DNA of 64,000 nucleotides, taken from assembly GCA_000091205.1 (NCBI GenBank), contig AP006500.2; one strand, written 5' to 3'. Of this stretch, positions 1,911 to 37,610 are shown in pieces. The notes below the pieces were generated by a model that worked only from the letters and a program-made list of their open reading frames with translations, was not told the DNA's origin and did not search any database. The translations under genes and the position numbers were made by a program. Source of the DNA: Cyanidioschyzon merolae (lineage: Eukaryota). Within the stretch, counting starts at the first letter, position 1. Every line of letters begins with the position of its first letter.

Positions 1911-3501
1911 GGTGTCAGCATAAAATGGAGCAGGTCCACGAATACTGGCTAGCTCTCTAAAAAATGGGCCTCTTCTCCTGGCCGTCAGCGCCAGCCACTG
2001 TGGGATTTTTCCGTGACTGCTTCTTGTTTTATGTTTCTTGTATCTGAAATGAAAAACCGCGGTCTGTCCTTTTACTCTAGATCGGTTGTCACTAGTCGAT
2101 GGATATTGAGGAACACGTCCAAGCGCCGATGTGGCCGATTCAAGCTGTTATCGACGAATATCATAGACACTCGATCGTTGTGAGCTACGCTTCACTCGCC
2201 ATTTTCATGTTATTTATACAGAGCCCCAGTGCGTCCTTCGCGGCGGTGGCGCTTAACTCTTTTCAGATGTTCCTATACGCGCACCAAACATCCGCGGGCT
2301 TCTCCTCCTTCTTCTTCGAGCACCGCCACGTGACACGGGAACGCTTGCTTCGTCCCTAACCACACGAACTTGACGGGTAGCGTGGGGTTCCTTCGATGTC
2401 TCACTCCGTTTCCGCGCCTCAGTGCTGTACCCTAGGATGACGGGCGTCGTCGTCGGCAATCTCCTCGGCGAGTGTGCTGTTCGCAGGACACGAAAGCGTA
2501 GGCTGCCCCATTCGGCTGCGGATTTGTGGAACGCGATATTGACCATGACGAAACAGTGTCTGGAAGGAAACCCGGGCCTGACGAAGCACTCGAGAGATCC
2601 AGTTCCATCTACGCTCCGTTCGTGCAGCGGATTTGTGGAACGCGATACTGACCATGACGAAACAGTGTCTGGAAGGAAACCCGGGCCTGACGAAGCACTC
2701 GAGAGATCCAGTTCCATCTACGCTCCGTTCGTGCAGCGGATTTGTGGAACGCGATATTGACCATGACGAAACAGTGCCTGGAAGGAAACCCAGGCCTGAC
2801 GAAGCACTCGAGAGATCCAGTTCCATCTACGCTCCGTTCGTGCAGCGCGGTGAAGCAGCCTCCGATAGAAGCGATCGCTGCGATAACGCAAGTCCGAGTC
2901 CAAGACACTTCTCCATGCAAACCGAAGACACGCGGGCCTCTACGAGCATACCCCGTGCAGCGTCGCACGCTGTTGTTGGCTCGCGCTCCACCGATAGCGT
3001 CAAAACGGGTAGGAATTGTTGTTCGGTCGATTTCAGCTAATGGAGGCGACAAGGTCAGTGAGCTTACGTTATGAGCTTGTACATACGACGTTCAGGGACA
3101 GCATCGACTTTTTCGTTTCCACGTCAATCCACCAGCGCCAACGCCTGCACCAACGAGTTGCTTTGAACGAGAACGATCGAAAACTTGAGCAGTGTCTGTG
3201 CTGCGAGCCTGCTATACGTCGGGCAAGGACAGGTGCGGCGGCTTGTACGCATGCATCGAATAACGATATCCGTTATTTGAGGAAGCCTTGTCTGAGGGCG
3301 TCGCGAATCGTCTCGACCCCAGTGCCGTCACGAATTCCAGCAACGACGAATTGAACGGGAGACACTGCAACAGAGACCGACCGAGACTCCTACAACTGCG
3401 TATCGGTTCGTATGCTCTTATTGCTGAACTTCAAATGTTGAGGCCGTGCTTCTAAAAAATCTTCGGAAAACTATCGAATGGTTAGAATGGAGCGAGCGGC
3501 T
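1911..3501 (+). repeat. Left inverted-repeat arm (~1.59 kb), containing three copies of the 109-bp tandem unit
   Basis: Reverse complement matches 4442..5814 at high identity, by direct comparison of both ends and the internal ORFs. Confidence 0.85.
2520..2846. repeat. Tandem repeat, 109-bp unit x3 (ggatttgtggaacgcgata..ccgttcgtgcagc), inside the left arm
   Basis: Three consecutive near-identical 109-bp blocks read directly at 2520, 2629 and 2738. The only differences are single-base changes (t/c, c/t, g/a). Confidence 0.9.
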
Positions 3502-4441: not shown

Positions 4442-5814
4442 AGCCGCTCGCTCCATTCTAACCATTCGATAGTTTTCCGAAGATTTTTTAGAAGCACGGC
4501 CTCAACATTTGAAGTTCAGCAATAAGAGCATACGAACCGATACGCAGTTGTAGGAGTCTCGGTCGGTCTCTGTTGCAGTGTCTCCCGTTCAATTCGTCGT
4601 TGCTGGAATTCGTGACGGCACTGGGGTCGAGACGATTCGCGACGCCCTCAGACAAGGCTTCCTCAAATAACGGATATCGTTATTCGATGCATGCGTACAA
4701 GCCGCCGCACCTGTCCTTGCCCGACGTATAGCAGGCTCGCAGCACAGACACTGCTCAAGTTTTCGATCGTTCTCGTTCAAAGCAACTCGTTGGTGCAGGC
4801 GTTGGCGCTGGTGGATTGACGTGGAAACGAAAAAGTCGATGCTGTCCCTGAACGTCATATGTACAAGCTCATGACGTAAGCTCACTGACCTAGTCGCCTC
4901 CATTAGCTGAAATCGACCGAACAACAATTCCTACGCGTTTTGACGCTATCGGTGGAGCGCGAGCCAGCAACAGCGTGCGACGCTGCACGGGGTATGCTCG
5001 TAGAGGCCCGCGTGTCTTCGGTTTGCATGGAGAAGTGTCTTGGACTCGGACTTGCGTTCTCGCAGCGATCGCTTCTATCGGAGGCTGCTTCACCGCGCTG
5101 CACGAACGGAGCGTAGATGGAACTGGATCTCTCGAGTGCTTCGTCAGGCCCGGGTTTCCTTCCAGACACTGTTTCGTCATGGTCAATATCGCGTTCTACA
5201 AATCCGCAGCCGAATGGGGCAGCCTACGCTTTCGTGTCCTGCGAACAGCACACTCGCCGAGGAGATTGCCGACGACGACGCCCGTCATCCTAGGGTACAG
5301 CACTGAGGCGCGGAAACGGAGTGAGACATCGAAGGAACCCCACGCTACCCGTCAAGGGCGTGTGGTTAGGGACGAAGCAAGCGTTCCCGTGTCACGTGGC
5401 GGTGCTCGAAGAAGAAGGAGGAGAAGCCCGCGGATGTTTGGTGCGCGTATAGGAACATCTGAAAAGAGTTAAGCGCCACCGCCGCGAAGGACGCACTGCG
5501 GCTCTGTATAAATAACATGAAAATGGCGAGTGAAGCGTAGCTCACAACGATCGAGTGTCTATGATATTCGTCGATAACAGCTTGAATCGGCCACATCGGC
5601 GCTTGGACGTGTTCCCCAATATCCATCGACTAGTGACAACCGATCTAGAGTAAAAGGACAGACCGCGGTTTTTCATTTCAGATACAAGAAACATAAAACA
5701 AGAAGCAGTCACGGAAAAATCCCACAGTGGCTGGCGCTGACGGCCAGGAGAAGAGGCCCATTTTTTAGAGAGCTAGCCAGTATTCGTGGACCTGCTCCAT
5801 TTTATGCTGACACC
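4442..5814 (-). repeat. Right inverted-repeat arm (~1.37 kb), containing one copy of the 109-bp unit
   Basis: Reverse complement of the left arm. It is shorter by ~218 bp, which equals two 109-bp units. Confidence 0.85.
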
Positions 5815-17566: not shown

Positions 17567-19170
17567 TGGAACGTCAAGTCATCCGGAGGGACTAGTTGAT
17601 CTGGTTTCGTGCTTGCTGGCTGTGCGGGCATATGCAGGAGGCCGCAATTGATGCATCAACCCCACAGCATGAGAAAAACACTCCTGGATGCAACAGCGGA
17701 AGTGACCATTCTTACTCGTAGGCAAGCGCGCAGAGATGTCGTTCAGGGATTTCGGATCGTCGACGCTGACTGCGAATCCCCGATGAAGCGATTGATATCC
17801 GCGTCCATCATTGCGCATCGCACTGTGAGGCGTCACCAATCACCACCTTTGCTTCTCTTCACGTATACTAGTCCGCCAGTTCGTGTGATGCTGTGTGGTG
17901 CCGACTGCCTACCCTGAGCGCCGACGAGGACGTACACGGTGCCGCAGCGGATGCTGCACGGAGGCAAAGCGGCTTCGCCATACCCGTGAGAACGTCGGCT
18001 CTAAATGTGGTTTATTTGACGCGTCGTCAGGTATCTCCCTCATGTCGTGCCCTGACAGTCACTGTATGCGGACCTGACTTTACATCAAGATGCGTTGCAG
18101 AAAAGAAGCTGTCAGGAGGAATCCTGAAAACCCCGAGTCTTCGCTTCCCTGTATTGGGAGGCATGCAATGCGGTCTTGCGACTCGGGGGCCATTGCGCTG
18201 CACTCAGCAGCCAGGAGATGCACGAAACGCCGGGCGCGCATGTTCATGCAGTTCGCGGCTCTTTTTCGCCTAGAAAGACGAATAAGAGTTTGGTGCCAGA
18301 TAGCGCGCATTTTGGTCCAACCAGTGGGCCTCCAATTGTCAGTTCTGCACCCAAAATAAGCGAACGCTCATGAGCATCTATAGTGACATCCACGAGGTGT
18401 GATTGCTCGAACAGCCAGCTTCGTTCCTGTGTCCGAACGCGAACACTGCAAAAGCGAGTCTCGCCGAGCATTGGGAGTTACGTCTCCCCTGCAGAAGCAG
18501 TATGATTCCCTGCGAGCATGTAATTTTTCGATGCAACACAAGGCCCGGACGTGCTAGACTTCACCGATTCGCTCTTTAGCGAGCCAGACGGTTCCCATGG
18601 GAACCTCTGACCACCCCAATGACTCCCGCCAAACGTTTCATGTCTCTACTCGGTGGTTCTTCTAATGGGATGCGAGGCCAACGTTGAAGATCCTGTTCTT
18701 TCGAAATCGGCATTTGCATTCTTTGCCTTGAACCGTTCGTTAGAGATGTCGAGAAAAGAGTCAGTCCCAGAAACCAACTGGTATATATCCACTCCAAAGC
18801 CATACTTGAGGAAAATCTGCCTCCACTAGACCCAAACGCTTTTTCGATACCTTGGGATGCACGCCATCATCCGGTTGAGCCGGGGGCGCGTGCTGGGCCT
18901 CTTGGCCCTTGTACGACGCGCTGCAGTCTGCTGCAATGACTTCCAACGGGGGTGTATAGGATTTACATCCGAGAGCTTCCGTGCTGGGTGCTCTGCCGAG
19001 CATCCCGACACGATTCGCATCGACCTGTTGACTGGGGTCTGCATTCGCGAAGCGAGTGCGAGGCTCATGCCCCACCATTCGACGCCCCAGGTGACCGCCT
19101 TGATGATGCACATCCTAATTGACCCGATGCAGACTCCCAGCGACATCCCTATGGGTCCGATAAGAACCTG

Positions 19171-19450
19171 CATGCACGAGCTGAGCGTTTCTTGATCTTG
19201 GCAATCTCCTCTCCTATATATACACACTTTCATCCAGTGTGCATGCACGAGCTGAGCGTTTCTTGATCTTGGCAATCTGCTCTCCTATATATACACACTT
19301 TCATCCAGTGTGCATGCACGAGCTGAGCGATTCTTGATCTTGGCAATCTGCTCTCCTATATATACACACTTTCATCCAGTGTGCATGCACGAGCTGAGCG
19401 TTTCTTGATCTTGGCAATCTTCTCTCCTATATATACACACTTTCATCCAG
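19171..19450. repeat. Tandem repeat, 71-bp unit x4, each unit carrying a TATA-like ctatatatacacac motif, immediately 5' of the oxidoreductase ORF
   Basis: Units start at 19171, 19242, 19313 and 19384. They are near-identical, with one c/t variant (ctcctct vs ctgctct). Confidence 0.85.
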
Positions 19451-19462
19451 CATCGACGTGAG

Positions 19463-20728
19463 TTGTACCAGGGCGCGGCGGGATTCGGCGTTGCCTCGCG
19501 AGCATCGCACTATCCGAAGATCGGCACTCGAGCTGCGCGTCCGAGGTGCTCCACAGCAGCTTCTAAGGTTCTGGCACAGCCTACGATGCGTATGGAACAG
19601 CCAGCAGCGTTTCTGAGTGGCAAACTACAACCCTTGTGCCTAGATCGCAAGTTCCAGTTGCGCGTGAGCGGGTCACGGCAACAGTTTCGGGGCCGCCGCC
19701 GACCCATTCTCGTCGCCCGGGTCGGGATCGGCGTCATCGGTGCAGGCCGCATAGGACAGGTACATGCAGCAACGATAGCTCGTCTGATGAATGCAGAGCT
19801 ACGAGGTATTGCTGATCCAATTGAAGCAGCTGGGCGTAAGGTGGCCGAGAGTTTCCAGACAGCGTACTTTCCAGACTATCGTACGCTGCTAGAGGACCCC
19901 GATGTACAGGGTGTCGTCATCGGCTCGCCAACGCCGTTTCACGCGGAACAAATGATAGCTGCAGCCGAAGCCGGCAAGCATATATTTTGTGAAAAGCCTA
20001 TCAGCAACGATCTCGCGACGATCGACCGTTGTTTAGAGGTGGTACGCACCAGCGGCGTCAAACTCCTGGTGGGGTTCCAGCGGCGCTTCGATAGTAACTT
20101 TAGCTACGTACGTGACCAGATTGAGCGTGGCACCATTGGGCAAGTGCGTATGTTTCACATCCATTCAAGAGATCCGGCGCCACCTCCGGCGGAATACTTG
20201 GCGAAAAGCGGAGGTATTTTCCTCGACATGTGTTCCCATGATTACGATATGGCGCGTTTTGTGACGGGCCAGGAAATCGAGGAGGTTTACGTGGTTGGCA
20301 AGGCCTTCGATCCCGAGGCACAGGCCGCAAATGATCTCGACACCCACATAACGGTACTGCGGATGTCGGGCGGGGTCATGGGCACCATCGACAACTCTCG
20401 TCGTTGCGCATACGGCTACGACCAGCGTATCGAGGTGTTTGGCTCCGACGGTTCGTTAATCGGTCAAAACAAGAGCAAGCACTCCGTAGTAGCCGCCGGT
20501 CAAGATGGGTATCATCATGGACGACCTTTTGATTTCTTTATGGATCGCTATCTGGAGGCGTACGGGAACATCATGACCGCATTTGTGCAGATGATCGAGC
20601 GCGGCACAGACCCCCCTGTCTCGGGGTTAGACGGTCGCGCGCCGGTGCTCGCTGCGCTGGCCGCAGCCCGAAGTGTCAAGGAGAATCGACCAGTGAAACT
20701 CAGCGAAGTCGATATACGCATGCGCTAG
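19463..20728 (+). CDS. Gfo/Idh/MocA-family NAD-binding oxidoreductase, closest to myo-inositol 2-dehydrogenase (IolG-like); ~85-aa N-terminal extension before the Rossmann fold
   Basis: Rossmann motif VGIGVIGAGRIGQVHA, then EKP motif (HIFCEKPIS) and the C-terminal GFO_IDH_MocA_C region. The real start may be Met42 (MRMEQ..). Confidence 0.75.
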   Translation: MYQGAAGFGVASRASHYPKIGTRAARPRCSTAASKVLAQPTMRMEQPAAFLSGKLQPLCLDRKFQLRVSGSRQQFRGRRRPILVARVGIGVIGAGRIGQVHAATIARLMNAELRGIADPIEAAGRKVAESFQTAYFPDYRTLLEDPDVQGVVIGSPTPFHAEQMIAAAEAGKHIFCEKPISNDLATIDRCLEVVRTSGVKLLVGFQRRFDSNFSYVRDQIERGTIGQVRMFHIHSRDPAPPPAEYLAKSGGIFLDMCSHDYDMARFVTGQEIEEVYVVGKAFDPEAQAANDLDTHITVLRMSGGVMGTIDNSRRCAYGYDQRIEVFGSDGSLIGQNKSKHSVVAAGQDGYHHGRPFDFFMDRYLEAYGNIMTAFVQMIERGTDPPVSGLDGRAPVLAALAAARSVKENRPVKLSEVDIRMR

Positions 20729-23760: not shown

Positions 23761-25038
23761 TCAGTCTTCGATTCGTGCTTTCCGATCCATCCATTCCTCG
23801 AGCTTCTCTCTCGGACTTTGACGATTTTCTAGGACGTCGATGACGCCTAACAGAATCGGAAACTTCAACGCTCGTCTCATGGGGTTCAAGTGCGGAAACT
23901 GCCTTTCAATGAGACTCGCAACTGCCTTTGCCGTCGGCACGCCTTCAGCGACCTGACTCGAAGTCTCTAAAATATGAGCAAGGGTTTCACCCTGACCCAG
24001 GCGGTAGCCAACCGTTCTGTTCCGACTGCTCGTGCCGAAGCAGGTCATAAACGTATCGCCTACGCCACTGAGGCCGGCCACAGTCACCGGACGAGCACCA
24101 AAACTCCGCGCAAGGCGCCGCATCTCCGAGCAGCCGCGAGTCACCAGCGCAGCTGTCGCGTTCATACCGAGACCAAGTCCCTCGCAGATGCCGGCAGCAA
24201 GGGCGATAACGTTCTTCACAGCGCCACAAATTTCAACGCCAACAACGTCGCTCGAGCGAAATACTTTCAGTGCTGGTGAGCTAATAGCGGCTGCAATACT
24301 CGCACATGCAGCAGCGTCATGCGAGGCCAGGACGACGGCTGCCGGAAGATCGGCCAACATCTCATGGGCGAAAGAGGGTCCCGAGAGAAACATGCATGGC
24401 ACCGGACGCTCTTTACCGAATACGTCGTCGAAAATCTCGTACATAAAGTTGCCTGTGCTAACCTCAATACCCTTGCTTGTGGACAGAATCGGTGTTCCGG
24501 GCGCCAAATTCGGGCGAACGCTCTCCACGAGAAAAGCTCTGCTCGCTTGGACCGGCACAGCATGAACACATAACCAGCAGCCTTTCAGAGCATCTTCGGG
24601 GTCCGTGGTCGCTCGAACAAGCTTTGGAAACCGGAAGCCTGGAACTAACGCAGTGTAGCGAGGGTTTGTGCGCTCCTTGTTGATCGTCTCTGCGACCTCC
24701 GCTCGACGAACAAGCAGCACAACCTGGTGACCATTGTTAGCCAAGGCAAACGCCATAGCGCTCCCAAAAGAGCCGCCGCCACAGATCGCTACGTGTCGAG
24801 CTTCCTCTTGGCTCTGCCCAGACAATCGTGCGTGCGTAGGTGGAACCTTCCGCCTCACAGACCGCCGCCCATAACTGGGGTCAGCAGAAGGGCGTCGCCA
24901 CAGCGTCACAGAAAAGGCGGTTTCCGTTCGAGCGGATCCTGCGCCCTCGAAGCCCCTAGCCAATGAGATGGCACAAGTGAACGCACTCGAAACAGACCTC
25001 GTGCTCTGTAGCCGCGGCACAGTTTGCTCAGGCTGCAT
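23761..25038 (-). CDS. NAD-dependent glycerol-3-phosphate dehydrogenase (GPD1/GpsA family) with a ~80-aa N-terminal extension
   Basis: The NAD-binding segment begins VAICGGGSFGSAMAFALANNGHQVVLLVR and continues ...GKERPVPCMFLSGPSFAHEM, ...KNVIALAAGICEGLGLG and ...TCFGTSSRNRTVG (C-terminal domain). The ORF is a single uninterrupted frame. Confidence 0.85.
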   Translation of the reverse strand: MQPEQTVPRLQSTRSVSSAFTCAISLARGFEGAGSARTETAFSVTLWRRPSADPSYGRRSVRRKVPPTHARLSGQSQEEARHVAICGGGSFGSAMAFALANNGHQVVLLVRRAEVAETINKERTNPRYTALVPGFRFPKLVRATTDPEDALKGCWLCVHAVPVQASRAFLVESVRPNLAPGTPILSTSKGIEVSTGNFMYEIFDDVFGKERPVPCMFLSGPSFAHEMLADLPAAVVLASHDAAACASIAAAISSPALKVFRSSDVVGVEICGAVKNVIALAAGICEGLGLGMNATAALVTRGCSEMRRLARSFGARPVTVAGLSGVGDTFMTCFGTSSRNRTVGYRLGQGETLAHILETSSQVAEGVPTAKAVASLIERQFPHLNPMRRALKFPILLGVIDVLENRQSPREKLEEWMDRKARIED

Positions 25039-26581
25039 GAGCTACTATCCTGCATCGGAACGAAGGACGCTCACCCGCGGTAGTGTCGCGCTTCTGATCC
25101 GCGCAGGCGCGTAAGCCGGCAGGAGTCGTTGCTGCATCGAGTTTTTTTCGATGACAGAGCGTTTCCATTGACCATGAATCCCCAATAGCGGGATGGGTAC
25201 TACGATTCATGTAATTCTCCATCATGACGCAACCTATCTCCAAGTTCCATTACCCATATTTCCTCTCAGGTATACTGGTCTTTTCCTTTGTTCTATCGTA
25301 TGCCAAGTGCCTGCAGTGAGCACCCACCGCAGCGCCTAAACCGCTTGTGCGGATGCTACACGGAGACAGAGTAGCTTTGTCATACCACTGAGGGCGTCGG
25401 CTCGAGGAATGCTACACCTGACACGGGATCAGGGCTACTTATCATTCTGGGAGTCTGGAAGCTGCGCAGGCAGGCGTACTGCCTGCGGCAGCGCAGAGCG
25501 ATATTCTTCGAGGACACCACGACCAGCGCGACGCCCAGACGCAGCATACCGCTCTGAGTCCCAGAATAAACTGCATTGCGGACGAGTTGCTCAGATCTCT
25601 CTGCATGACCAGGCTCCGAGAGGTCTATGAAGCACGAGCCTGGGAGAATCGTCCGACTCGCGGGACATTCCGCCCAGAAGGTAAACTTTCGTCAATATGG
25701 AAATCTTTGCTCCCCATGAATTTTTATCATTGACAGGGAAGGCAATTGTTATCTCGCTGCCAGTCAGTAGTGAGTCTCTGCTCTTCGTTCTATAGAGTAC
25801 AGTCGATAGGCGCACCCAGGAGATCTGCCAGGCACGAGGTACGACGTGGATATCGCCATTGAAGAGAAACGCGATCCTGATCATTAGCATGTTGTATACC
25901 GTACAAGGTGTATTTGCGTTGAAGTCGTAGCAACGTTTAGTCTTCAGTTCAGTTGTGTTCCAACCCCAAAGCAAGTATATACGAGCGATTTTTCGTGGTT
26001 TATAGCAGAAGCGTTCAAAGTGTGTTCTTTTTCGAAAATAAAAAAGGAAAGTTCTGGACGAAGAAGTGGAGGATCCTGGAGGCACGGTGTCGCCAGGTGG
26101 CGAAAAGAACGAAAAATAGTGCCGAGCAAAGATGAACAGGAGAAGAAGAAGAAGAAGCGAGAGCCAGACCTCAACGGCTGCAAGAAAGGCGACAGCATGA
26201 CGAGATGATAGTGAACGCCTGCCTTCTTGGATGTATCAAGGATCCGTACGAGCAGAAGATGCGAGAGACCACCAGAAGCCGTGTCGATTCCTACTCCAGG
26301 AGCGTGCGTAACACTTCTTTTTGGACTGAAGCATACGGTGAAGGAGATATACGATGACCTTACCGACACGAAAACAGTCGAGGTTCCGGAAGCGTTTTTT
26401 TTAACAAGACCCTCAGCCGCCACTTGATGCTTGGCACAGGGGGACGTCGAGGGAAAATGAGCGCATGTGCGTCCTCCATGAAAAATACCCCTACTAGGGT
26501 CTCAAAGGTACTCGTTACAGGGGTGACTCGCGTATTTTCGAATACAGGGCAAAAAAGTATCTCACGAACCTGAACAACCAT

Positions 26582-28095
26582 ATGATCATGAAGCTCGAAC
26601 GTTTCATGACACGCTCCATCGTTGCGCGCTACCCGGGCCTCTCTCGCAAAGGGATACGGGCCATCATCAATGGCGTCAGGAACGATAGTAAGAATGAACA
26701 GGAGATCGAATTCCTCGACGAGAAGACATCACACAGGAGAACGAATGAAGCTTCTGCAATCCGTACGGCAATTCAAGAGCACCGTCCGGTCTCGGAGCTG
26801 GTCAATCCAGCAGGAAATGTATCAGGTATGGAAAAAGAAAAGCAAAGATGTTATCCCCTAATCCTGCGCTATTTCGTGTGTTTGGACCGCGAACTCGATC
26901 CCAAGGCCAATATGGAGCTGGGTGTGGAACAAAATGTAGAGTCAGAGAAACGGAAGGGTATCCTAACGGGTAAGCGCTTTAGCGTTGTTGCGTTATGCAT
27001 CACCAAGTTCCATTTTGTAACAATCGACTCCAGAGTCCTCAACGGCATCATGAAGGAGGTCTGTCTGGAGTTCGATGTAAGGAAGATAGAGTTCACCAGT
27101 GAAAACCGGGAGACGTACTGGAAGAATATCTTCAATTTCAAACGTCTCAATACGTGCAAGCAAAAGGTATTCACTGGCATCATCGAAACCGATGGAGTAG
27201 CCATGTGTGTACACTCTCGGCGCTTGAAGGCAGATCGTCCAGTTCCGTCCTCGACTGCGCCCGTGGCGAAGCATGAAGAAAACAAGGAGGCTGGCCTTAC
27301 AACGCAGGAGGTACAGGAGAACGATTTTGTTGTTGGCACGGACCCTGGGAACACGAATATCGTAACCATCGCAGTACCCAAGCGTGCGGAAGATGATATC
27401 GACGGCAACTTACGTCAGAAGGACATCCGTCTTTGAAAGCTCACGACAGCTACATCTTACCGAGAATCAGGAAAACTGAATGCAAGGAAAAGAAATGAGA
27501 CGTGGAATGCAGGAGTGAAAGAGCACAAGGCAGCGATCAGCCAGGTGACGAGCCGAGGAGCGGACTTTGAAGCTTTTCGAGAGTTCATGAAAGTCCGCGC
27601 TGCTCTTGACGAGCCGCTGTCGAAAGAATCTACAAAGCCCCGGTGGGCTCGTCTGCTTAGAATCTTGTACTTTGGGAAGCAGCACGCATTTGCCAACTTC
27701 TTCAATGAGTTGAGCGCTCTCAAAGAGGACAAAATTCAGAGACTCGTGGTGGTATACGGAGCAGGGCATTGGATGACACGGAAAGGTAGCACACCAGCTC
27801 CATCGACACGAGCGTATAAGGAGTGCACACTGTGCTTCGTCATGATGTCGATAGATGGGTTCCGAACGTCGTATACATCCACCATGAGCTAGGGTGTGTA
27901 CTTGAGAGTGTCGAGATGGAAAAGTGCCAGCAGAGCACTGAGGATGTAGCAAACTACGGAGCGCTGACAGAGCACCTAACGGCATGGAGGGTGCGAGTTC
28001 GAGGTCTACTTCCGTTGGTGAGTACAACCAATGCCAAGAAACATATGAAATTCGTGAACCGAGACTTCAATGCCGCCAACAGTATAAGCAGATAG
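26582..28095 (+). pseudogene. TnpB/Fanzor-like nuclease ORF, copy A. It is disrupted by an in-frame TGA at 27434, a frameshift near 27865 and a TAG at 28094.
   Basis: ORFs 26582..27436 and 27515..27892 are in the same frame, separated by one TGA. ORF 27823..28095 continues in a different frame. Copy B reads through all of these positions. Confidence 0.55.
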
Positions 28096-28410
28096 GCGGT
28101 GCTGGAGAAGAGGCCCCCAGAGTTGACCAGAGCCAACTTTCTGGGGCAACCTCTGCAGATGGCGCTGTACGAGAAGAAGCTGAAGCCAGTAGTAAATGGC
28201 CGGTCCAAAAACCCTGGGAGAATTCTGCACGCTGGCGTATATACATCAACGCTATCGGCTTGATGTGTGTGCGTTCGTTTGCTCGTTTTGCTGGCGGGAT
28301 TGATGGCGTCGATCCCGAGTCCAGATGGAGAGCTGGCGGGAATGCTGCTGCGCTCTTTTCGCTGCAGTGCGTTGCGAGGCATTCTGTAACGAGAGGCAGG
28401 TTTCCAGGGG
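28096..28410 (+). ncRNA. Candidate omegaRNA scaffold region of Fanzor-like copy A (conserved 3' tail shared with copies B and C)
   Basis: ~300 nt downstream of the RuvC-III motif align by eye between A (28096-28410), C (36140-36425) and the reverse complement of B (34262-34370), e.g. ccagagttg..gagccaacttt..ggggcaacctct..tacgagaagaag.tgaa.ccagtagt. In TnpB/Fanzor systems the guide-RNA scaffold occupies exactly this position. Confidence 0.25.
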
Positions 28411-28804
28411 CAGCACAGAGCAGCAACACAGGATACGTTCAAAGGCGTGCTTGGCGTGCTTCCGAGCGGCACCTTCGGGGGTTTATTTCGGAGCTTCGCC
28501 TTCGAGCGCTCTCCATAAGCGAAATACCAACGGTTTCAGTGATGGGCGGGCAACGATGCGTACAGGTGAGAAACGCTCCAGATGCCACGACCACCGCGCG
28601 ATCGTTGCGCCAGGAAACGACATAATTTTGAGAAGAAGCATATACAGGCCCAATCCTAATGATAAGCGATTTCATGTAGTCGACGCATCGAATATATGTA
28701 GCCGCTAGGCACCGACGCATCCTCGTTGACATGCGGAGCGCAGCGTTCTCCTGTCCAATGCCCAGTCATGCCCCGTACAGGTATTCATTTCTTGACCGCA
28801 TCAT

Positions 28805-29563
28805 TCATTCCTCAGCGGACGCCGATGACGCCGGTCGAGAGCGAGGCCGAAAGCGCAGCGGTGCAGCGCTACGCTTTCGGCGACTCGAGCCCGAGGTGGC
28901 TTTCACGATGTTCGCGTCGGCGGCCGTGCAGATAAGACGCAAACGATCAGCGTAAACGTAGGCCTCGGTAGTCGCGTCTCCAGCGGAGCGTGCATGACTG
29001 GTCACAGCGGGAACAGCGCGTCCGTCCAGGCAGTCCGGCCGAGGCGGTAAATGGGAAGCAAGTCGCGGGCCCTCGAGTTTCAGGCTCCCGCTCGCGGGAA
29101 CTGCCGGTTCAACGCGTATACTGGCATCCGTGGCGCCACCTAGGTCACTGGTCCGTGGCAGTCGCTCCACAGCAGCGTAGGTTTCCGGTTTGCGCTCGAG
29201 TCGAAGCAGTGCATGTCGGACGAGAAAAGTCCACACGTTATCTCGCAAGTTGTAGTGTGCGAGGCGTCCCCTGAGCACGGAACGCTGGCGGACTTTCCGT
29301 CGTAGATAGCGAGCAACTGCTTGGTCAAACTGGGTCCACACCAAAGCAGCCTCTGACTCCTGCAAGTGTCCCGCGCTCAATAACTCGTCGAGGGTGTCCT
29401 CAAGAGTCAGGCCAATTGTTGAGGCCCGGTAGTGAGCGTAAAACACCCCCGGCTGGTTAGCGGCGGTGTTTGCATCTTGTTTCCCTCCCCGAATGCTTTC
29501 CGTTGTAGCTTGGCCCGCATCTGGCTCTGCTTTTGCAGTACGCTGCGGTGTTGCGTCGCTCAT
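28805..29563 (-). CDS. Transcription initiation factor IIA small (gamma) subunit, with N- and C-terminal low-complexity extensions
   Basis: YRASTIGLTLEDTLDELLSAGHLQESEAALVWTQFDQAVARYLRRKVRQRSVLRGRLAHYNLRDNVWTFLV aligns closely with human TFIIA-gamma [71 protein letters not shown] (recalled sequence). Confidence 0.7.
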   Translation of the reverse strand: MSDATPQRTAKAEPDAGQATTESIRGGKQDANTAANQPGVFYAHYRASTIGLTLEDTLDELLSAGHLQESEAALVWTQFDQAVARYLRRKVRQRSVLRGRLAHYNLRDNVWTFLVRHALLRLERKPETYAAVERLPRTSDLGGATDASIRVEPAVPASGSLKLEGPRLASHLPPRPDCLDGRAVPAVTSHARSAGDATTEAYVYADRLRLICTAADANIVKATSGSSRRKRSAAPLRFRPRSRPASSASAEE

Positions 29564-31089
29564 CGCACGACCAGGATATTCCCCTACGGAGCACGCCTCG
29601 GCTGGCGGCTTAGGTACTGATCTTCACCGTACTGTACGTCCTACCTCAAGAGTTATCGCTCCTATTTTGTTTCACCTTGATCCAAGTAGGTTAGCAGTTT
29701 AAAGACTGGTTGCTGCCCAGCCGGTCCAGCAAGGCGCTCACGAGACGCAAACACGGAACGTTTCGCGCTCGCGCGGCGTTTGCAACGCCGGATACACGCG
29801 CTAGCCAGGGCGATCCATGACTACTCCCACCTCTATCACTTCTCCTACATCAATAACTACTTTCTGGGGTCCTAGAACGGAACGGAATGGTGGTCCCTTC
29901 CCTGGATGCCGATGATCATCACGCAATGGGCACTTCCACCCCAGTCTCATCGATCCAACACTATTCAAGTAAGTTATTGCGATCGTCCCGTGCCTTCGGC
30001 ACCGTCGTGAAGCTGCCGACGATCGCAGCACCACGGGACTCGGTTTATGCCGGCGATCAGGCTCCGCTGCAGTTCATGGACCGGCTGCGCTGCTGCATCA
30101 TGTGCATCGCTCAGTCTAGTTAAAAGCGTAAGCAAGCTCGACCAAAAATCGTTTGATCTCTGTGTATCCCCGATGAGGCTTTTGATGCTGGATGCGGGGT
30201 GACCTATCGTCTCCCGGTCCACGAGGAAAGACTCGGCATCCTGGCACGGCATATTGGCAACGACACCGGCTCCCGTGGCGTATTGCGAGCATCGGGTGCA
30301 TTCCAGAGAACCCGGCCATCGTGCTGCCTGCACCAAGCTGCTAACACTGAAGGGCCAGCATATGATCCTCCTCTTTCCTGTACGCGATGCACAGGGCACT
30401 CTGGGTGCCCAGGCCTATATGGGGCGCTTGCCATGACGCTGGGCGTGTCGCCGCCAATGCCGCACGAAGACAAGATGCATGCACGACGTGTTCTATGCTG
30501 TGCGACTGAAGCGTCTGCCCAGGTTTCGACGAATGCGGAATCGGTGATGGCAATCAGGGAAGAGCACACAACTCCGCTTCGAATCTTGCACCGTACTATC
30601 AGCACAAGGTCAGTAGTTCCGATGGGTATGTGGGTGCGTTTCAGAGACTCTCCGAGTACCAACTCTATTACGTCGATTTGCGCTACCACTACGGGCGTCA
30701 GTTCGATGTGCGTGAGTATCATTCGATGGGTGCGCTGGCGTCGACATAATCGCGCCCGTATCCGGCGCAGCTCGTGCACGACTCCATAGCGCTTTCTTAG
30801 CGCTTTTGTGGCGATACGTTCGGGCAGCAAGGATTCACTCATCAAAGCGGTGCGTTTGCCACAGACTTGGGTGAGCGTTCGGAGCTGCGAGCTCGTGCTG
30901 TCAGCGTGCTATTCCCCGATGCATCCAGTAGTATAGACGCCGTCCTCTCGAAGAAAAGCCAAAAAGCGATCAGCAACCATCCAGCAGACTTTCTCTTCAT
31001 GGAGTCTGTCTCTTTCCCGCTCATGGACGCCCCAAGTACGCAATCGACTCAGCAAATTTGCACCATCAAAAGTCGCCTCTGAAGCGCTT

Positions 31090-31140
31090 TTCGTGTCCTC
31101 ACGCACGCACGCACGCACGCACGCATGCATGCATGCGTGT
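31090..31140. repeat. (CACG)n/(CATG)n microsatellite
   Basis: The run cacgcacgcacgcacgcacgcacgcatgcatgcatgcgtgtg is read directly. Confidence 0.85.
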
Positions 31141-31265
31141 GTTCCAGTGCCGCAACCGCATCGCAACGCCAGCAATGAACGCGCAGGTACAGCAATGTCC
31201 AGAATCGATCCGTGTCGCCGCTCCGTGGCCCGACTGAAGATGCCGGCGGCGAGTGCCGGCATCAT

Positions 31266-31392
31266 CAATGCCCGACGAAGCAGCAGCAGCAGCGGCGGCG
31301 GTGGCGGCATCGATAGCGCGCCCGACAGCTGCGCACCGCTGCCGCCGAGCGCAGAATCGAAGGATTGCCGCCGCCGCCGCCGCCGCCGCCGT
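31266..31392. repeat. GC-rich trinucleotide repeats (CAG)n(CGG)n ... (GCC)n in the 5' region of the helicase gene
   Basis: The runs agcagcagcagcagcggcggcggtggcggc and gccgccgccgccgccgccgccg are read directly. Confidence 0.8.
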
Positions 31393-31687
31393 CAAATCCA
31401 GCGCCTACGAACCTGTAGCTACTGTTCTTATAGTTGTTTTCGGGGTATCCCTCACATACAGAACAAACTCGCAGGGTTTCGCAGGGCCCTATAGATACTG
31501 TGGTGCAGATCAACAAACCTTGCGCTTACGAACCTTGAGAACCGACGGAAATTACTACGAACGAACGCAGAGACGTACAGCGTACCACGACTTGATCAGC
31601 GACGGTACCAACCTGTATACACTCCAGCGCTCTCTTTTGAGCGTGCAAGTCGTGCACACGCAAACTTCATCGGGCACCGATCCCTAA

Positions 31688-33655
<1,968 letters not shown>

Positions 33656-34261
33656 ACACGTAAAGTGAATACCCTCAAGATGCCTGCTATCGTCCGCTGC
33701 GGCATTCTCCAAAGCGCGTATCCGCTTGTCGTGGACGCGAATACTGCGTGTCGGCGCTGCAGTTCCGGGACGGCCGCAGGGCCCGCAAGCGCGACACGCC
33801 TCGCTGGCGCGTTCCCGCTGGTAGCTGTCAACGCGAGCTTGTCGTGGGCTTCTCTGCCCAGAGCCGCTGTTATCGGAACCCGGGTTACGGTACTCAAGTG
33901 CGGACAGTGCAGGCAGGGGTCCGCCTAGGTCTGCAACGAGTGCCGCACTGGTCGGCGCCCGCCAGTTCAGATTCGAAGCACATGCCGAAGCGCGTCAGTG
34001 TCACCAGGTCGCTATGAAACGCCAGTGACACTCTCTCCAGATCCAGATACCCAAGTGAGTGACTTATGCTCCTTCAGCGAGTGTCAAGTTCCCGGTGCAT
34101 AAGCTTGCCGAACTGGCGCAGCATGCATCCTGCCAGATGGAAGCAGTTCGATGGTTCACGCTCGCTAGCCTGACGGATCATCTGTAGTCTTTTGTACATA
34201 CCAGGTTTGCAGCCCAGCGAGCCTGGATTCCGATGAAGCACTCGACCGCGATAGCGTACCA

Positions 34262-35330
34262 GGTCGTCTATTGCAGAGCACGACTTGCATCGATTCTGGA
34301 ATACCGCCACCAAACGCCGTTCGAAAGTCGAACGACGCCAACGGTGTACAGTAGTGGCGAGTGACCCGCCCTAGACAAGACGTCTCCAAGTGACGTGCAG
34401 ACGCCATCCGATCTTTCTCGACCGGCCACCTACGACTACTGCTCCCAACTTCTTCTCATATAGTTCGACTTTTGGAGGTTGTTCCACAAAGTTCTCCCGT
34501 GTCAACTCTGGAGGTCTCGTCTCTATCACCGCACATCTCCTTATATTGGTAGCGGCATTAAGGTCTCGGTTCACAAACTCCATACGTTTCTTGCAATCAT
34601 TGGTTGTACGTACTCATGCGAGTAGCCCTCGAAGTCTCGCTCTCCTTTCCATTTGCTCCTCCGTCAGCGGTCCATACTTTTTTATATCTTCAGGGCTCCG
34701 CTGACACTTTTCCATCTCCACTGTCTGAAGTGTACACCCCTGTTCATGGTGTGTATACGAGGTTCGGAACTCATCTACAGGTATCGTAACGAAACGCCGT
34801 GCGCCCTCCTTGTACGTTCTTGTCGTTGGAGCTGGCGTAGTCCCTTTTTGGGTCTTCCATCGCCTTGCTCCGTACGCTACGACGAGCCTCTGATTTCCAT
34901 CCTCCTTCAGGTCACTCAACTGATTGAAAAAATTCGCGAACGCCCGCTGCTCCCCACAATACAAATTCATTCGCAAACGAGCCCGCCGGGGCTTGGTATA
35001 CTCCTCCCACAGCGCATCCCAATGGGCAACGCGAACTTTCATGAATTTCCGAAAAGCTGCAAAGTCCGCGCCTCGTCTAGTCACCTCGCTCAAAGCTTCC
35101 AGGTGCTCTTTCATTCCTGAGTTCCAAGTCTCGATTTTCTTCCTCGCATTCATTATACCGGATTCTCGATAGTATCTTGCTCTCGAGAGCCTCAAAAGAC
35201 GCATGTCTTTCTGACGTAAGTTACCATCAGTCCCATCTTCCGCACACTTTGGTACAGAGATGGTTATGATGCTCGTATTCCCAGGGTCCGCGCCAACGAC
35301 AAAGTCGTTATCCTGCACCTCCTGCATCGC
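34262..35330 (-). pseudogene. TnpB/Fanzor-like nuclease, copy B. It lacks the ~230-aa N-terminal region and has one in-frame TGA at 34614-16; the RuvC-I..RuvC-III region plus the 3' conserved tail are otherwise contiguous.
   Basis: ORFs 34614..35327(-) and 34371..34583(-) are in the same frame. Motifs present: FVVGADPGNTSIIT ... FRTSYTHHEQGC ... FVNRDLNAATNIRRC. Confidence 0.55.
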
Positions 35331-35399
35331 AGGATCCGCATCATTCTCATCTACATCCTTCGCCAGGGGCGAAGCCGAGGACGGACCAGGAAGCGGGCC

Positions 35400-36425
35400 C
35401 GACGGCGCTGGAGGTGCAGAAGAACGCGTTTGTCGTTGGCGTGGATCCCGGGAACACCCACATCGTTACCATCGCAGCACCCAAGCGTGAGGAAGATGGC
35501 TCTGTCGGCAACTTACGTCAGAAAGACATAAGTCTGTTGAAGCTCTCATGAGCGAGATATTACCAAGAATCCGGTATAATGAATGCGACGGAGAAAAGTG
35601 AGACATCGAACTCAAGAGTGAAGGGAATTTGGAAGCGATCAGCCGGGTGACGAGCCGCGGAGCCGACATTGAAGCGTTTCGAGAGGTTATGAGCATTCAC
35701 GCAGCTGATGACGAGAGCTTTTGGAAAGAATGCACAAAGTTCAGGTGGGCTCGTCTGCGTATGAACCTGTACTGTAGGAAGCAGCGAGCATACGCCAGCT
35801 TTTTCAATCAATTGAGCGCCCTCAAGGAGGACATGAGCCAAAGGCTCGGAGTAGCATACGGGGCAGGGCGCTGGATGACCCAAAAAGGGTGTACACCAGC
35901 TCCAACGACAAGAACGTACAAGGAGTGCGCACATCGTTATGTCGAAATACCTTTAGATGAGTTTCGAACATCTCATACACACCACGAGCTGTGTTGTACA
36001 CTTCAGAGGGTCGCGATGGAGAAAAGCCAGCGGCTCGCTGACGGAAATGCAAATAGCAAGGAGGGCGAAACTTCGAGGACTACTCGCTTTGGTTCGTAAA
36101 ACTAATGATAGGAAGAAACGAATAGAGTTCCTGGACTGAGACTTTAACGCCGCCATCAGTATAAGGAAATGTGCAGTACTGGAAAGAAGACCCCCGGAGT
36201 TGGCGAGAGCCAACTTTGCGGGGCAACCTCTTAAAATGGAGTGATACGAGAAGAAGTTGAAACCAGTAGTAGGTGGCCAGTTGCTGAACGCCAGCACAGT
36301 CGTCTGCACATCATTGGGTAGACAATCGGTCTACGGCGGACGGTGTGAGAAACGCCACCATTGTACACTGGCTTTCCAGCGTTTCTCTTTTGCAAGGCGT
36401 TTGGTGGTGTTTCCAGAGACGAATT
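35400..36425 (+). pseudogene. TnpB/Fanzor-like nuclease, copy C, head-to-head with copy B. It has several in-frame stops, including CGA>TGA inside the RuvC-III NRD motif (LD*DFNAAISI), and it lacks the N-terminal region.
   Basis: By hand translation: 35423.. [42 protein letters not shown]; the ORF 35629..36099 carries the central region; 36130.. reads D*DFNAAISIRKCAVLERRPPELARANF. Confidence 0.5.
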
Positions 36426-36661
36426 GTTTACCAAAAACGTCTTCTATCGATCTTCGAAACCAACGTGCTGCTTCCTCTGTGCGGCACGGGGCGTACGCTA
36501 TGCGCTTTTCTGCTGATTGACAGCGGAAGCGACGAGTCCGGTTACTGCCTTGAAGACTTTGACGCTTTGGAGAGACCATCATATCGATGGTTTCAGTTTT
36601 CTGACCTCCTCCTAACCACCACGCTCGGATCTCTGTTGCAACGGCACGCGCAGCAGCTCTC

Positions 36662-37610
36662 ATGGCAGCCAAAGCTGAACCCGGGCATCGAGAGAGTGGA
36701 AAGCTGCATCAAAGGTGGCGGAAAGCCAATGAAGCTGGTTATCTGAGCAAGCTTGCATCACCTGCAGAGCTGCGAGCACTCGTCCAAGCGAAACTGACAC
36801 CCGAGGAGCAAGTGCGTTTTGGGATGCAGTGTGCAGGGCTGGCAGCCAAGGCACTTGAGGTACTCGACAAGTCGCTTACATCTTTAGAGCAAGACATAGA
36901 GAACGAGTCTTGTGACTGGGAAATAGAATCGGACGATGCCATGGACCGTGTTGCGAGACGATTCCTTGCCGATCTCGAACAGCTAAAGCAGACTGGCAGC
37001 ACGCGTCGACTCACCCAACTCAGTATTTGGCGTCGCATCAGTCGCTAGGTCGTACTGGCGGAAAGGCGAGCATGAACTGCAGGCTGAAGGCAGTCCTCTT
37101 GTGAGGCAAGTCGCGAAGATCGCGGACCAGGCATCCAAGACTCCGGGATACCGCCAGGTCGTTGCCTGGGAGCATCTGGAAGAGCTCGCAGATGCGGCAA
37201 CTGCAGATGGTGTATTCGGTTCGCAGTCGCGGTCGATGTCACGTATCTTACGTCGCCCAGAAAGTCGGTTTCGACTCTTGCTCACGAAACTAGAGCTTGG
37301 TGAGGAGCTCTGCACACGCGACGAGCGGCGTTTGATGCTAGCATTGGATACCTCTGATGCGAGACTTGAACCCGAACGCATGCGCTCGAGGAAGAGGGCA
37401 CCTGGTGGAGCGCAGGATGGCGCCTCTGCAAAGCGCGACCACGGGAGGTCTGCATCCGTTTCGTCGTCGTCGTCGTCGTCGTCGTTAGAGCCAGAGCACG
37501 AGGATCACGTGCACCCAGCGGCCAAGAACGCGTCTTCCGCGAGAAAGAAAAGACGACATCATCGGCGACGATCATCCAACAAAAACGAAACCCTGGAGAA
37601 TCCTCAGTAA
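36662..37610 (+). CDS. Hypothetical protein, possibly one gene split by a frameshift near 37000-37050 (ORFs 36662..37048 and 37101..37610 in different frames); Ser-rich and basic C-terminus
   Basis: Two adjacent same-strand ORFs whose open frames overlap for ~60 nt. No recognisable domain. Confidence 0.2.

Follow-up and report, generated by a model that had tools for sequence, protein, structure and literature searches.

The 64,000-nucleotide stretch of Cyanidioschyzon merolae DNA analysed here (contig AP006500.2; hereafter the window) carries three degenerate copies, A, B and C, of the Fanzor1 element family CMe-1A. A preliminary description had taken the DNA behind copy A, at 28096-28410, to be part of a conserved non-coding tail of about 300 nucleotides (nt), shared by all three copies and a candidate omegaRNA scaffold. 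Our analysis leads to a different picture, to which we give a probability of about 0.62: the copies are dead members of CMe-1A, the conserved stretch of copy A is protein-coding sequence stranded behind a premature stop, and the omegaRNA scaffold of active members is most likely formed by a shorter family tail, probably together with the end of the open reading frame (ORF). For the window itself, the result is thus mainly a correction of the earlier reading.

The identity of host and family is clear. The 425-aa ORF at 23764-25038 (minus strand) matches exactly the glycerol-3-phosphate dehydrogenase (G3PDH) XP_005538677.1, and the host is therefore C. merolae 10D. Using the reconstructed Fanzor protein as a query, 161 homologues were found. 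Searches of Pfam and PDB with this single sequence gave nothing usable; matches came from a profile of 16 family members alone, which recovered the solved Fanzor1 structures PpFz1 (9cf0, E 9.7e-16), SpuFz1 (8gkh, E 4.5e-9) and GtFz1 (9cer, E 0.006). The family consensus keeps the D/E/D residues of the RuvC motifs (DPGxxNI, VDEFRTS and FVNRDxNAAxNI), and the region of the zinc-finger (TNB) insert between RuvC-II and RuvC-III reads HHE.GC...C rather than CxxC...CxxC (C4 of the Bao and Jurka motif); Pfam Cas12f1-like_TNB matched this insert under the model cut-off (E 0.13, 12.8 bits). Hot-spring metagenome contigs yielded 218 relatives with sharp similarity boundaries 5' as well as 3', of which 80, with protein identities of 71-99%, were kept as loci. 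The counts given below come from different sets of copies: 66 distinct copies were aligned, 52 non-redundant copies served for diversity, 69 for the Cys codon, 48 for the stop codon and tail length, and 47 for strand bias.

CMe-1A is the one Fanzor1 family listed for C. merolae by Bao and Jurka in 2013, with about 150 copies of some 3 kb that are approximately 80% identical to their consensus, no terminal inverted repeats (TIRs) and undetermined target site duplications (TSDs); its 5' 635 bp also occurs as a separate repeat, TE-N2_CMe (PMC3627910). The present copies agree with that account in host, in length (about 3 kb), in divergence (about 75-80% identity between copies), in number (more than 150), and in having neither TIRs nor detectable TSDs, the latter sought without success in seven full-length loci. 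Their 5' module, of approximately 560-640 bp in these loci, is also found free-standing and is equivalent to TE-N2_CMe. Copies A, B and C belong to this published family, with no sign of a different one, and the element itself is not new. Its published account of 2013 dates from before omegaRNAs were described, and it includes neither a 3' terminal structure, nor a stop-to-end distance, nor a right-end boundary. New here are the right end of CMe-1A and its 54-67-nt two-hairpin tail, possibly reaching about 65-80 nt into the ORF, as a red-algal candidate for a Fanzor1 omegaRNA.

Copy A occupies 25144..28231 on the plus strand, with a left end at about 25133-25153 and a 3' end at 28230-28232 according to blastn comparison with the 80 loci. 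Its Fanzor1 pseudogene starts at about 26100 and contains frameshifts, stops and an E to G change in RuvC-II (SIDGFRTS). The TAG at 28093-28095, previously read as the protein C-terminus, is a premature stop that replaces a cysteine codon: the corresponding codon is TGT in B and C, and TGT or TGC in 60 of the 69 aligned family copies. The sequence that follows, AVLEKRPPELTRANFLGQPLQMALYEKKLKPVVNGRSKNPGRILH (28096..28231), is in frame with the upstream ORF and represents the decayed C-terminal coding sequence of copy A, the next in-frame stop being a TGA at 28261-28263. In homologues of 35-50% identity, NIRRC..RP..L.R..F.GQ is conserved through to the natural C-terminus. At codon positions 1, 2 and 3, nucleotide diversity is 0.155, 0.142 and 0.266 overall, and 0.18, 0.165 and 0.247 between A's stop and the family stop. 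As RNA, the stretch 28096-28231 does not fold significantly (z -0.96). Thus, the last 45 codons of copy A look non-coding because of a copy-specific nonsense mutation (TGT to TAG), and the similarity at 28096-28231 reflects shared coding ancestry, an outcome that the preliminary description had itself listed as speaking against an RNA. The supposed 300-nt non-coding tail of copy A is mostly a pseudogene artefact.

That similarity among the copies goes on past A's stop had been correctly noticed; its extent had been overestimated. Within the window, the blastn alignments of A end at 28211 (against B, 35391 to 34414) and 28204 (against C, 35358 to 36281), and similarity to the 80 related loci ends at 28230-28232 in three quarters of the matches. 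In place of 250-300 nt ending near 28410, the shared part measures 136 nt, and at most about 175 nt. The segment 28270..28410 has no match in the 80 loci or the window; it is unique DNA unrelated to the family, outside any tail, located 3' to the gene for TFIIA-gamma (28805-29563, minus strand) that neighbours copy A. When A 28270-28420 was aligned with the flanks of B or C, scores of 13 and 16 were obtained, compared to 15+-2.3 for shuffles. A search for the family 3' end (98 nt) downstream of A returned nothing significant, the sole trace being a 9-nt match at 28230-28238. Copy A is devoid of the last 14 codons, the family stop, hairpin 1 and the linker described below. Since A lost most of its tail and 28270-28410 is unrelated sequence, the guide-equivalent position that had been named for this copy is wrong.

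The true end of the family lies elsewhere. When the 66 distinct copies are aligned, the stop codon of the family comes 159 nt after the premature stop of A, and the consensus end reads ...RRFV-TAG-GGCGGGTTTCTCGCC-ACTACTGTACAC-CGCTGGCGTCGTTCGACTTTCGAACGGCGTT-GATGGTG. Of 48 copies, 30 have a stop codon at the consensus position; the tail from stop to boundary measures 54-67 nt, its length differing between copies by non-multiples of three. Between 61 and 68 nt past the stop, within about 7 nt, nucleotide diversity jumps from approximately 0.3 to the random level of 0.70-0.75, and the sequence directly past the boundary is copy-specific. This abrupt change marks the right end of CMe-1A, which is thereby located with a precision of about 10 nt. 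The tail comprises two hairpins (H1 and H2) around an almost invariant linker, CGCCACTACTGTACAC. In the window the linker motif is found at the B and C tails only, and in the loci once per Fanzor copy, so that there is no evidence for solo right ends. Diversity within the tail is patchy, at 0.04-0.2 in stems and linker and 0.4-0.6 in loops.

Of the three copies, only B has a tail that looks intact, that of C being decayed. Copy B (34307..35391, minus strand) is truncated at its 5' end and has one internal stop, with its RuvC motifs (DPG, DEFRTS and NRD) intact. Alignment places its family stop codon, TAG, at 34373-34371. The 64-nt non-coding tail that follows (34307..34370), delimited by its fold, a motif match at 34344-34359 and the family conservation boundary, consists of H1 (GGCGGG-TCA-CTCGCC, 34370-34356), the linker ACTACTGTACAC (34355-34344) and H2 (34346-34308, core 34338-34314). 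Beyond it lies the copy-specific flank CGGTATTCCAGAATCGATGC (34287..34306), where diversity is at the random level; should the tail be an omegaRNA scaffold, this flank would be in the guide-equivalent position. Two metagenomic loci, L002 and L003, are 98.5-99% identical to the 3' 800 nt of B, flank included. Copy C (35358..36407, plus strand) is likewise 5'-truncated and has several stops and frameshifts, one stop falling inside the RuvC-III motif (FLD*DFNAA). Its stop-equivalent codon is a mutated TAC (36332-36334); its decayed tail (36335..36407) matches the linker motif with two mismatches (CGCCACCATTGTACAC, 36353-36368), and its guide-equivalent flank would start at about 36408, or about 36418 if TTTCCAG belongs to the end. 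Aligned with each other, the B and C tails score 39 compared to 13.6+-2.2 for shuffles, and a further 75-95 nt or so are common to B and C. The ends earlier placed at B 34262 and C 36425 move to about 34313-34307 and 36401-36407, respectively, and the guide-equivalent position for B shifts by about 45 nt. All three copies are pseudogenes and, judging from their sequences, none encodes a working nuclease. Within the window, the tail of B is the best-preserved candidate for an omegaRNA scaffold.

Copies B and C meet head-to-head at about 35358-35391, and their truncations fall close to one and the same element position (corresponding to roughly 27238-27270 in A). The pair forms an imperfect palindrome of about 1 kb with roughly 73-79% identity (34307-36407). 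Contig L006, from a related metagenome, matches the 3' end of C at 95.8% (800 nt from 36030) and carries it beside another copy in the same arrangement.

The tail has a stable fold that favors the sense strand. The 67 nt at B 34373-34307 form the two hairpins with an energy of -33.2 kcal/mol (z -4.50; none of 200 shuffles reached this stability), compared to -21 kcal/mol (z -2.19) for the antisense strand; the tail of C does not fold significantly (z -0.47). Across 47 copies, tails average -23.3 kcal/mol in sense and -18.5 kcal/mol in antisense (p 1.6e-9), and the flanks show no such bias. The consensus of subfamily v1 folds with a z of -5.8, and a 149-nt consensus that starts 81 nt ahead of the family stop and ends 68 nt beyond it folds with a z of -4.81. 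H2 is kept in two subfamilies with different stems, ..CGTTCGA-CTT-TCGAACG.. and ..CGTTTTTC-TTTT-GAAAGGCG.., and the stability of real tails exceeds that of the consensus after as many substitutions have been placed in it at random (mean z -0.84, with 79% below zero). Covariation support for the tail is modest. In the 149-nt structure, 22 pairs show double changes, compared to 14.5+-2.5 in shuffles, and the covariation score is 0.121 compared to 0.109 (2 of 500 shuffles as high in each case); slid partners give 0.056-0.080. The outcome of the covariation analysis is thus mixed: the larger structure exceeds its shuffles, while a model of the hairpins alone does not.

Several observations suggest that the scaffold possibly overlaps the ORF over its last 65-80 nt or so. 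In the 149-nt consensus fold the last ~70 nt of the ORF pair with the tail (34371..34441, minus strand, in copy B), a placement that also draws on the covariation counts and on the fading of codon periodicity. Expressed as diversity at position 3 over that at positions 1 and 2, periodicity is 2.0-2.6 upstream, 1.4-1.6 over the last ~160 nt and 1.27 over the last 42 nt. One long-range helix pairs the linker with AGTAGTAGGTGGC in the ORF; by eye it was first dismissed, as the upstream variants looked uncompensated; the later formal count gave modest support to the larger structure. Distant homologues end about 25 residues before the end of the CMe-1A protein. Five of them, L086-L090 (35-41% protein identity), carry behind the stop a hairpin-rich non-coding segment of 135-205 nt that terminates in a common (C)TCTATATA. 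The neighbour directly upstream, in the same orientation, is a DDE_3 transposase gene of Tc1/mariner type (a tblastn match in L087) in the case of L087-L089 and of the P0092 contig. The tails of L086-L090 could not be aligned to that of CMe-1A, and a three-sequence RNAalifold run was uninformative. These observations, few in number, would fit a scaffold of about 130-150 nt that the ORF of CMe-1A has grown into. A separate stretch of the ORF, GAACTATATGAGAA (codons E-L-Y-E-K; B 34453-34466, minus strand; family positions -95 to -82 from the stop), is almost invariant in 48 copies, synonymous sites included, which suggests constraint at the nucleotide level; copy A has a mutated CTGTACGAGAAG there.

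In SpuFz1 of Spizellomyces punctatus, a 75-nt conserved region lies between the stop and the 3' inverted repeat, and the non-coding RNA of 88-90 nt reaches 14-15 variable nt beyond it; the omegaRNA of GtFz1 from Guillardia theta overlaps 17 C-terminal codons (Saito et al. 2023, PMC10432273). Fz1 omegaRNAs measure 150, 90 and 75 nt and share a 7-bp stem-loop (SL1), and those of SpuFz1 and PpFz1 have a single further stem-loop between SL1 and the guide (Xu et al. 2024, PMC11423790). In layout, the SpuFz1 omegaRNA resembles the CMe-1A tail in position, in its similar size, in its two stem-loops and in the variable sequence that follows, and the two proteins are homologous at the profile level (E 4.5e-9, as above). 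Since the position and size of the tail match the 75-nt SpuFz1 scaffold, an omegaRNA is plausible for B, C and the family. The two systems differ in that SpuFz1 has a 3' inverted repeat, whereas CMe-1A has no TIR at either end and no defined motif in its left flank. The scaffolds of GtFz1 and of the ISDra2 TnpB omegaRNA overlap the 3' end of the ORF; for CMe-1A we infer such an overlap from folding and conservation patterns alone, and a hairpin-only model without it would also fit.

The general Fanzor logic of the preliminary description, a scaffold at the 3' end running to the right end with the guide taken from the flank, suits the family, whose profile matches Fanzor1 structures. Its scaffold proposal survives in part: a structured, sharply bounded 3' module with a copy-specific flank is present in the family, in B and, decayed, in C, but the tail is 54-67 nt and not about 300. 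In active members, the omegaRNA scaffold would most likely be made up of the tail, to which the last ~65-80 nt of the ORF probably contribute. Sense transcription, as part of the gene or from its 3' end, would yield this RNA; the Fanzor1 protein would then bind it, with the 15-20 nt of flank just past the boundary acting as the guide.

Some of our results weigh against a scaffold role. With a mean diversity of 0.33, the tail is no more conserved than third codon positions (0.27), and the evidence for constraint consequently comes from the patchiness of the pattern and the preservation of the fold. For subfamily v2, the consensus has only a moderate fold (z -1.8). A simple model restricted to H0, H1 and H2 shows covariation no better than shuffles, and default RNAalifold on 48 tails returns a weak consensus of -2.35 kcal/mol, in this case because the two subfamilies use different H2 registers. 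The covariation test on the 149-nt structure used related, non-independent copies and a structure derived from their own consensus; because the copies are related, the p-values are optimistic. H1 and the long-range helix are mutually exclusive, and the data do not separate them. Rfam gave no relevant match at E<=1 over 25500-37500. Finally, although comparison of further copies, which the preliminary description had recommended, placed the right-end boundary across 66 aligned copies, no target-adjacent motif (TAM) could be defined at the left end from the junctions examined: in about half of 13-17 junctions, GAT(T/C) recurs 2-8 nt ahead of the left end, with no fixed-register conservation in nine unique ones.

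The hairpins might alternatively be DNA-level transposition signals, recognized by the enzyme that mobilises CMe-1A, and not an RNA scaffold. Their location exactly at the element end would fit this, as would the distant relatives that sit directly downstream of DDE_3 genes and share the terminal TCTATATA 135-205 nt past their stop, and the weak DDE_3 remnants near some CMe-1A copies. The left end, however, has no matching structure: its folds are not significant (z +0.9 and +0.2), no inverted repeat or TIR corresponds to the right end, and CMe-1A has no TIRs in the published account (PMC3627910). Moreover, sense-biased folding via G.U pairs is expected for RNA or for single-stranded top-strand DNA, not for recognition of a duplex. 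We consider this explanation unlikely, and it is not fully exclusive of a scaffold, as TnpB and Fanzor systems combine both roles. Another possibility is that the tail has no function and is simply inherited from one master sequence and has not yet decayed. The slight excess of mean tail diversity over that of third positions, the negative hairpin-only covariation test and the weak RNAalifold support are all compatible with this. On the other hand, undirected decay would hardly produce the contrast between conserved stems and linker and variable loops, substitutions that preserve the fold better than random placement, two subfamilies with different H2 stems that both pair, or double changes above shuffles on the larger structure. 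Codon periodicity also shows that the family diversified under selection, which implies that it had active lineages. Mere shared ancestry thus seems quite improbable to us.

Two further explanations can be given very little weight. An extended C-terminal domain, with the whole conserved stretch coding up to the right end, holds for 28096-28231, and in a single metagenomic gene call (P0005) the frame continues past the family stop for a further 23 codons. It is at odds with the stop at the consensus position in most copies and the non-triplet differences in tail length, with a diversity that tracks stems, linker and loops rather than codon position, with the fading of periodicity over the last 42 nt of the ORF, and with distant homologues ending some 25 residues earlier. 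Nor is the tail at all likely to be an ordinary 3' untranslated region, terminator or processing signal of the Fanzor gene. A stable sense-strand hairpin directly after a stop codon would suit such a signal, but conservation ends abruptly at a fixed point, which is also where the mobile element ends, and the size and two-stem layout match the published Fz1 scaffolds. The omegaRNA scaffold remains the explanation that we favor for the tail and the end of the ORF.

One may go further and speculate that CMe-1A is a Fanzor1-only element without a transposase, in which the Fanzor1-omegaRNA pair sustains spread or retention by RNA-guided homing and the ORF has grown about 25 codons into the scaffold. 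The basis for this idea is the asymmetry of the ends (no TIR, no TSD, hairpins at the right end only) and the maintenance under selection of both the ORF and the 3' RNA structure through more than 20% divergence; at present we regard it as a long shot. C. merolae is a genetically tractable thermoacidophile that grows at about 42 C. If the scaffold proposal is true, the intact members in hot-spring metagenomes would provide, from a thermoacidophilic host, a compact Fanzor1 together with its guide scaffold.

With respect to a possible transposase, no DDE_3 similarity was detected in the window, and the hallmarks of Tc1/mariner-borne Fanzor1 elements (a DDE_3 gene, TIRs and a TA target duplication) were not found for CMe-1A. 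Weak DDE_3-like remnants occur near some copies on Cyanidioschyzon-type contigs (L077 218-731, L076 22-252, L069 4633-5405 and L020 5907-6125; tblastn E 1e-4 to 1e-8). On its own, the 5' module of copy A (25144-25785, the first ~560-640 bp) recurs in related loci, in both orientations and away from Fanzor ORFs. The 3' end of this free TE-N2-like module was compared with the CMe-1A right end and showed no resemblance.

Copy A itself may retain a remnant of the terminal hairpin H2. A tentative candidate lies at 28230..28269: CGCTGGCGT at 28230-28238 is the 9-nt exact match mentioned above, to family tail positions 61-69 and located at the breakpoint, and CGGCTTGATGTGTG at 28256-28269 resembles the terminal CGGCGTTGATGGTG of the family. 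These matches tentatively suggest that an internal deletion of about 50 nt left a rebuilt terminal hairpin; the local alignment of the remnant is not significant on its own (20 compared to 15.1+-2.1, with 12 of 300 shuffles as high). The segment A 28232-28380, just past the breakpoint, folds unusually well as RNA (-68.1 kcal/mol, z -3.99). Two hairpins are part of it: one of 19 bp, rich in G.U pairs and formed by the candidate remnant (about 28234-28275), and another, GGCGGGATTGATGGCGTCGATCCCG. Copy A lies about 105 bp upstream of the G3PDH start, in divergent orientation (25038-25144), and about 540 bp from the TFIIA-gamma gene. An empty site was sought through G3PDH-bearing contigs of related strains and none was found; the orthologous metagenome contig, L082, carries copy A in an identical arrangement, indicating that the insertion is old or fixed.

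Elsewhere in the window, two sub-threshold miRNA models at 31101-31386 (minus strand) are most likely chance matches (MIR5534, 30.1 bits against a gathering threshold of 79; mir-3149, 29.1 against 100). Tandem repeats of 71 nt (four copies) and 109 nt (three copies) occupy 19169-19521 and 2515-2847, respectively. The 109-nt repeats are contained in a pair of long inverted repeats (1911-3501 with 4442-5814), whose arms of 769 and 719 nt are 99% complementary.

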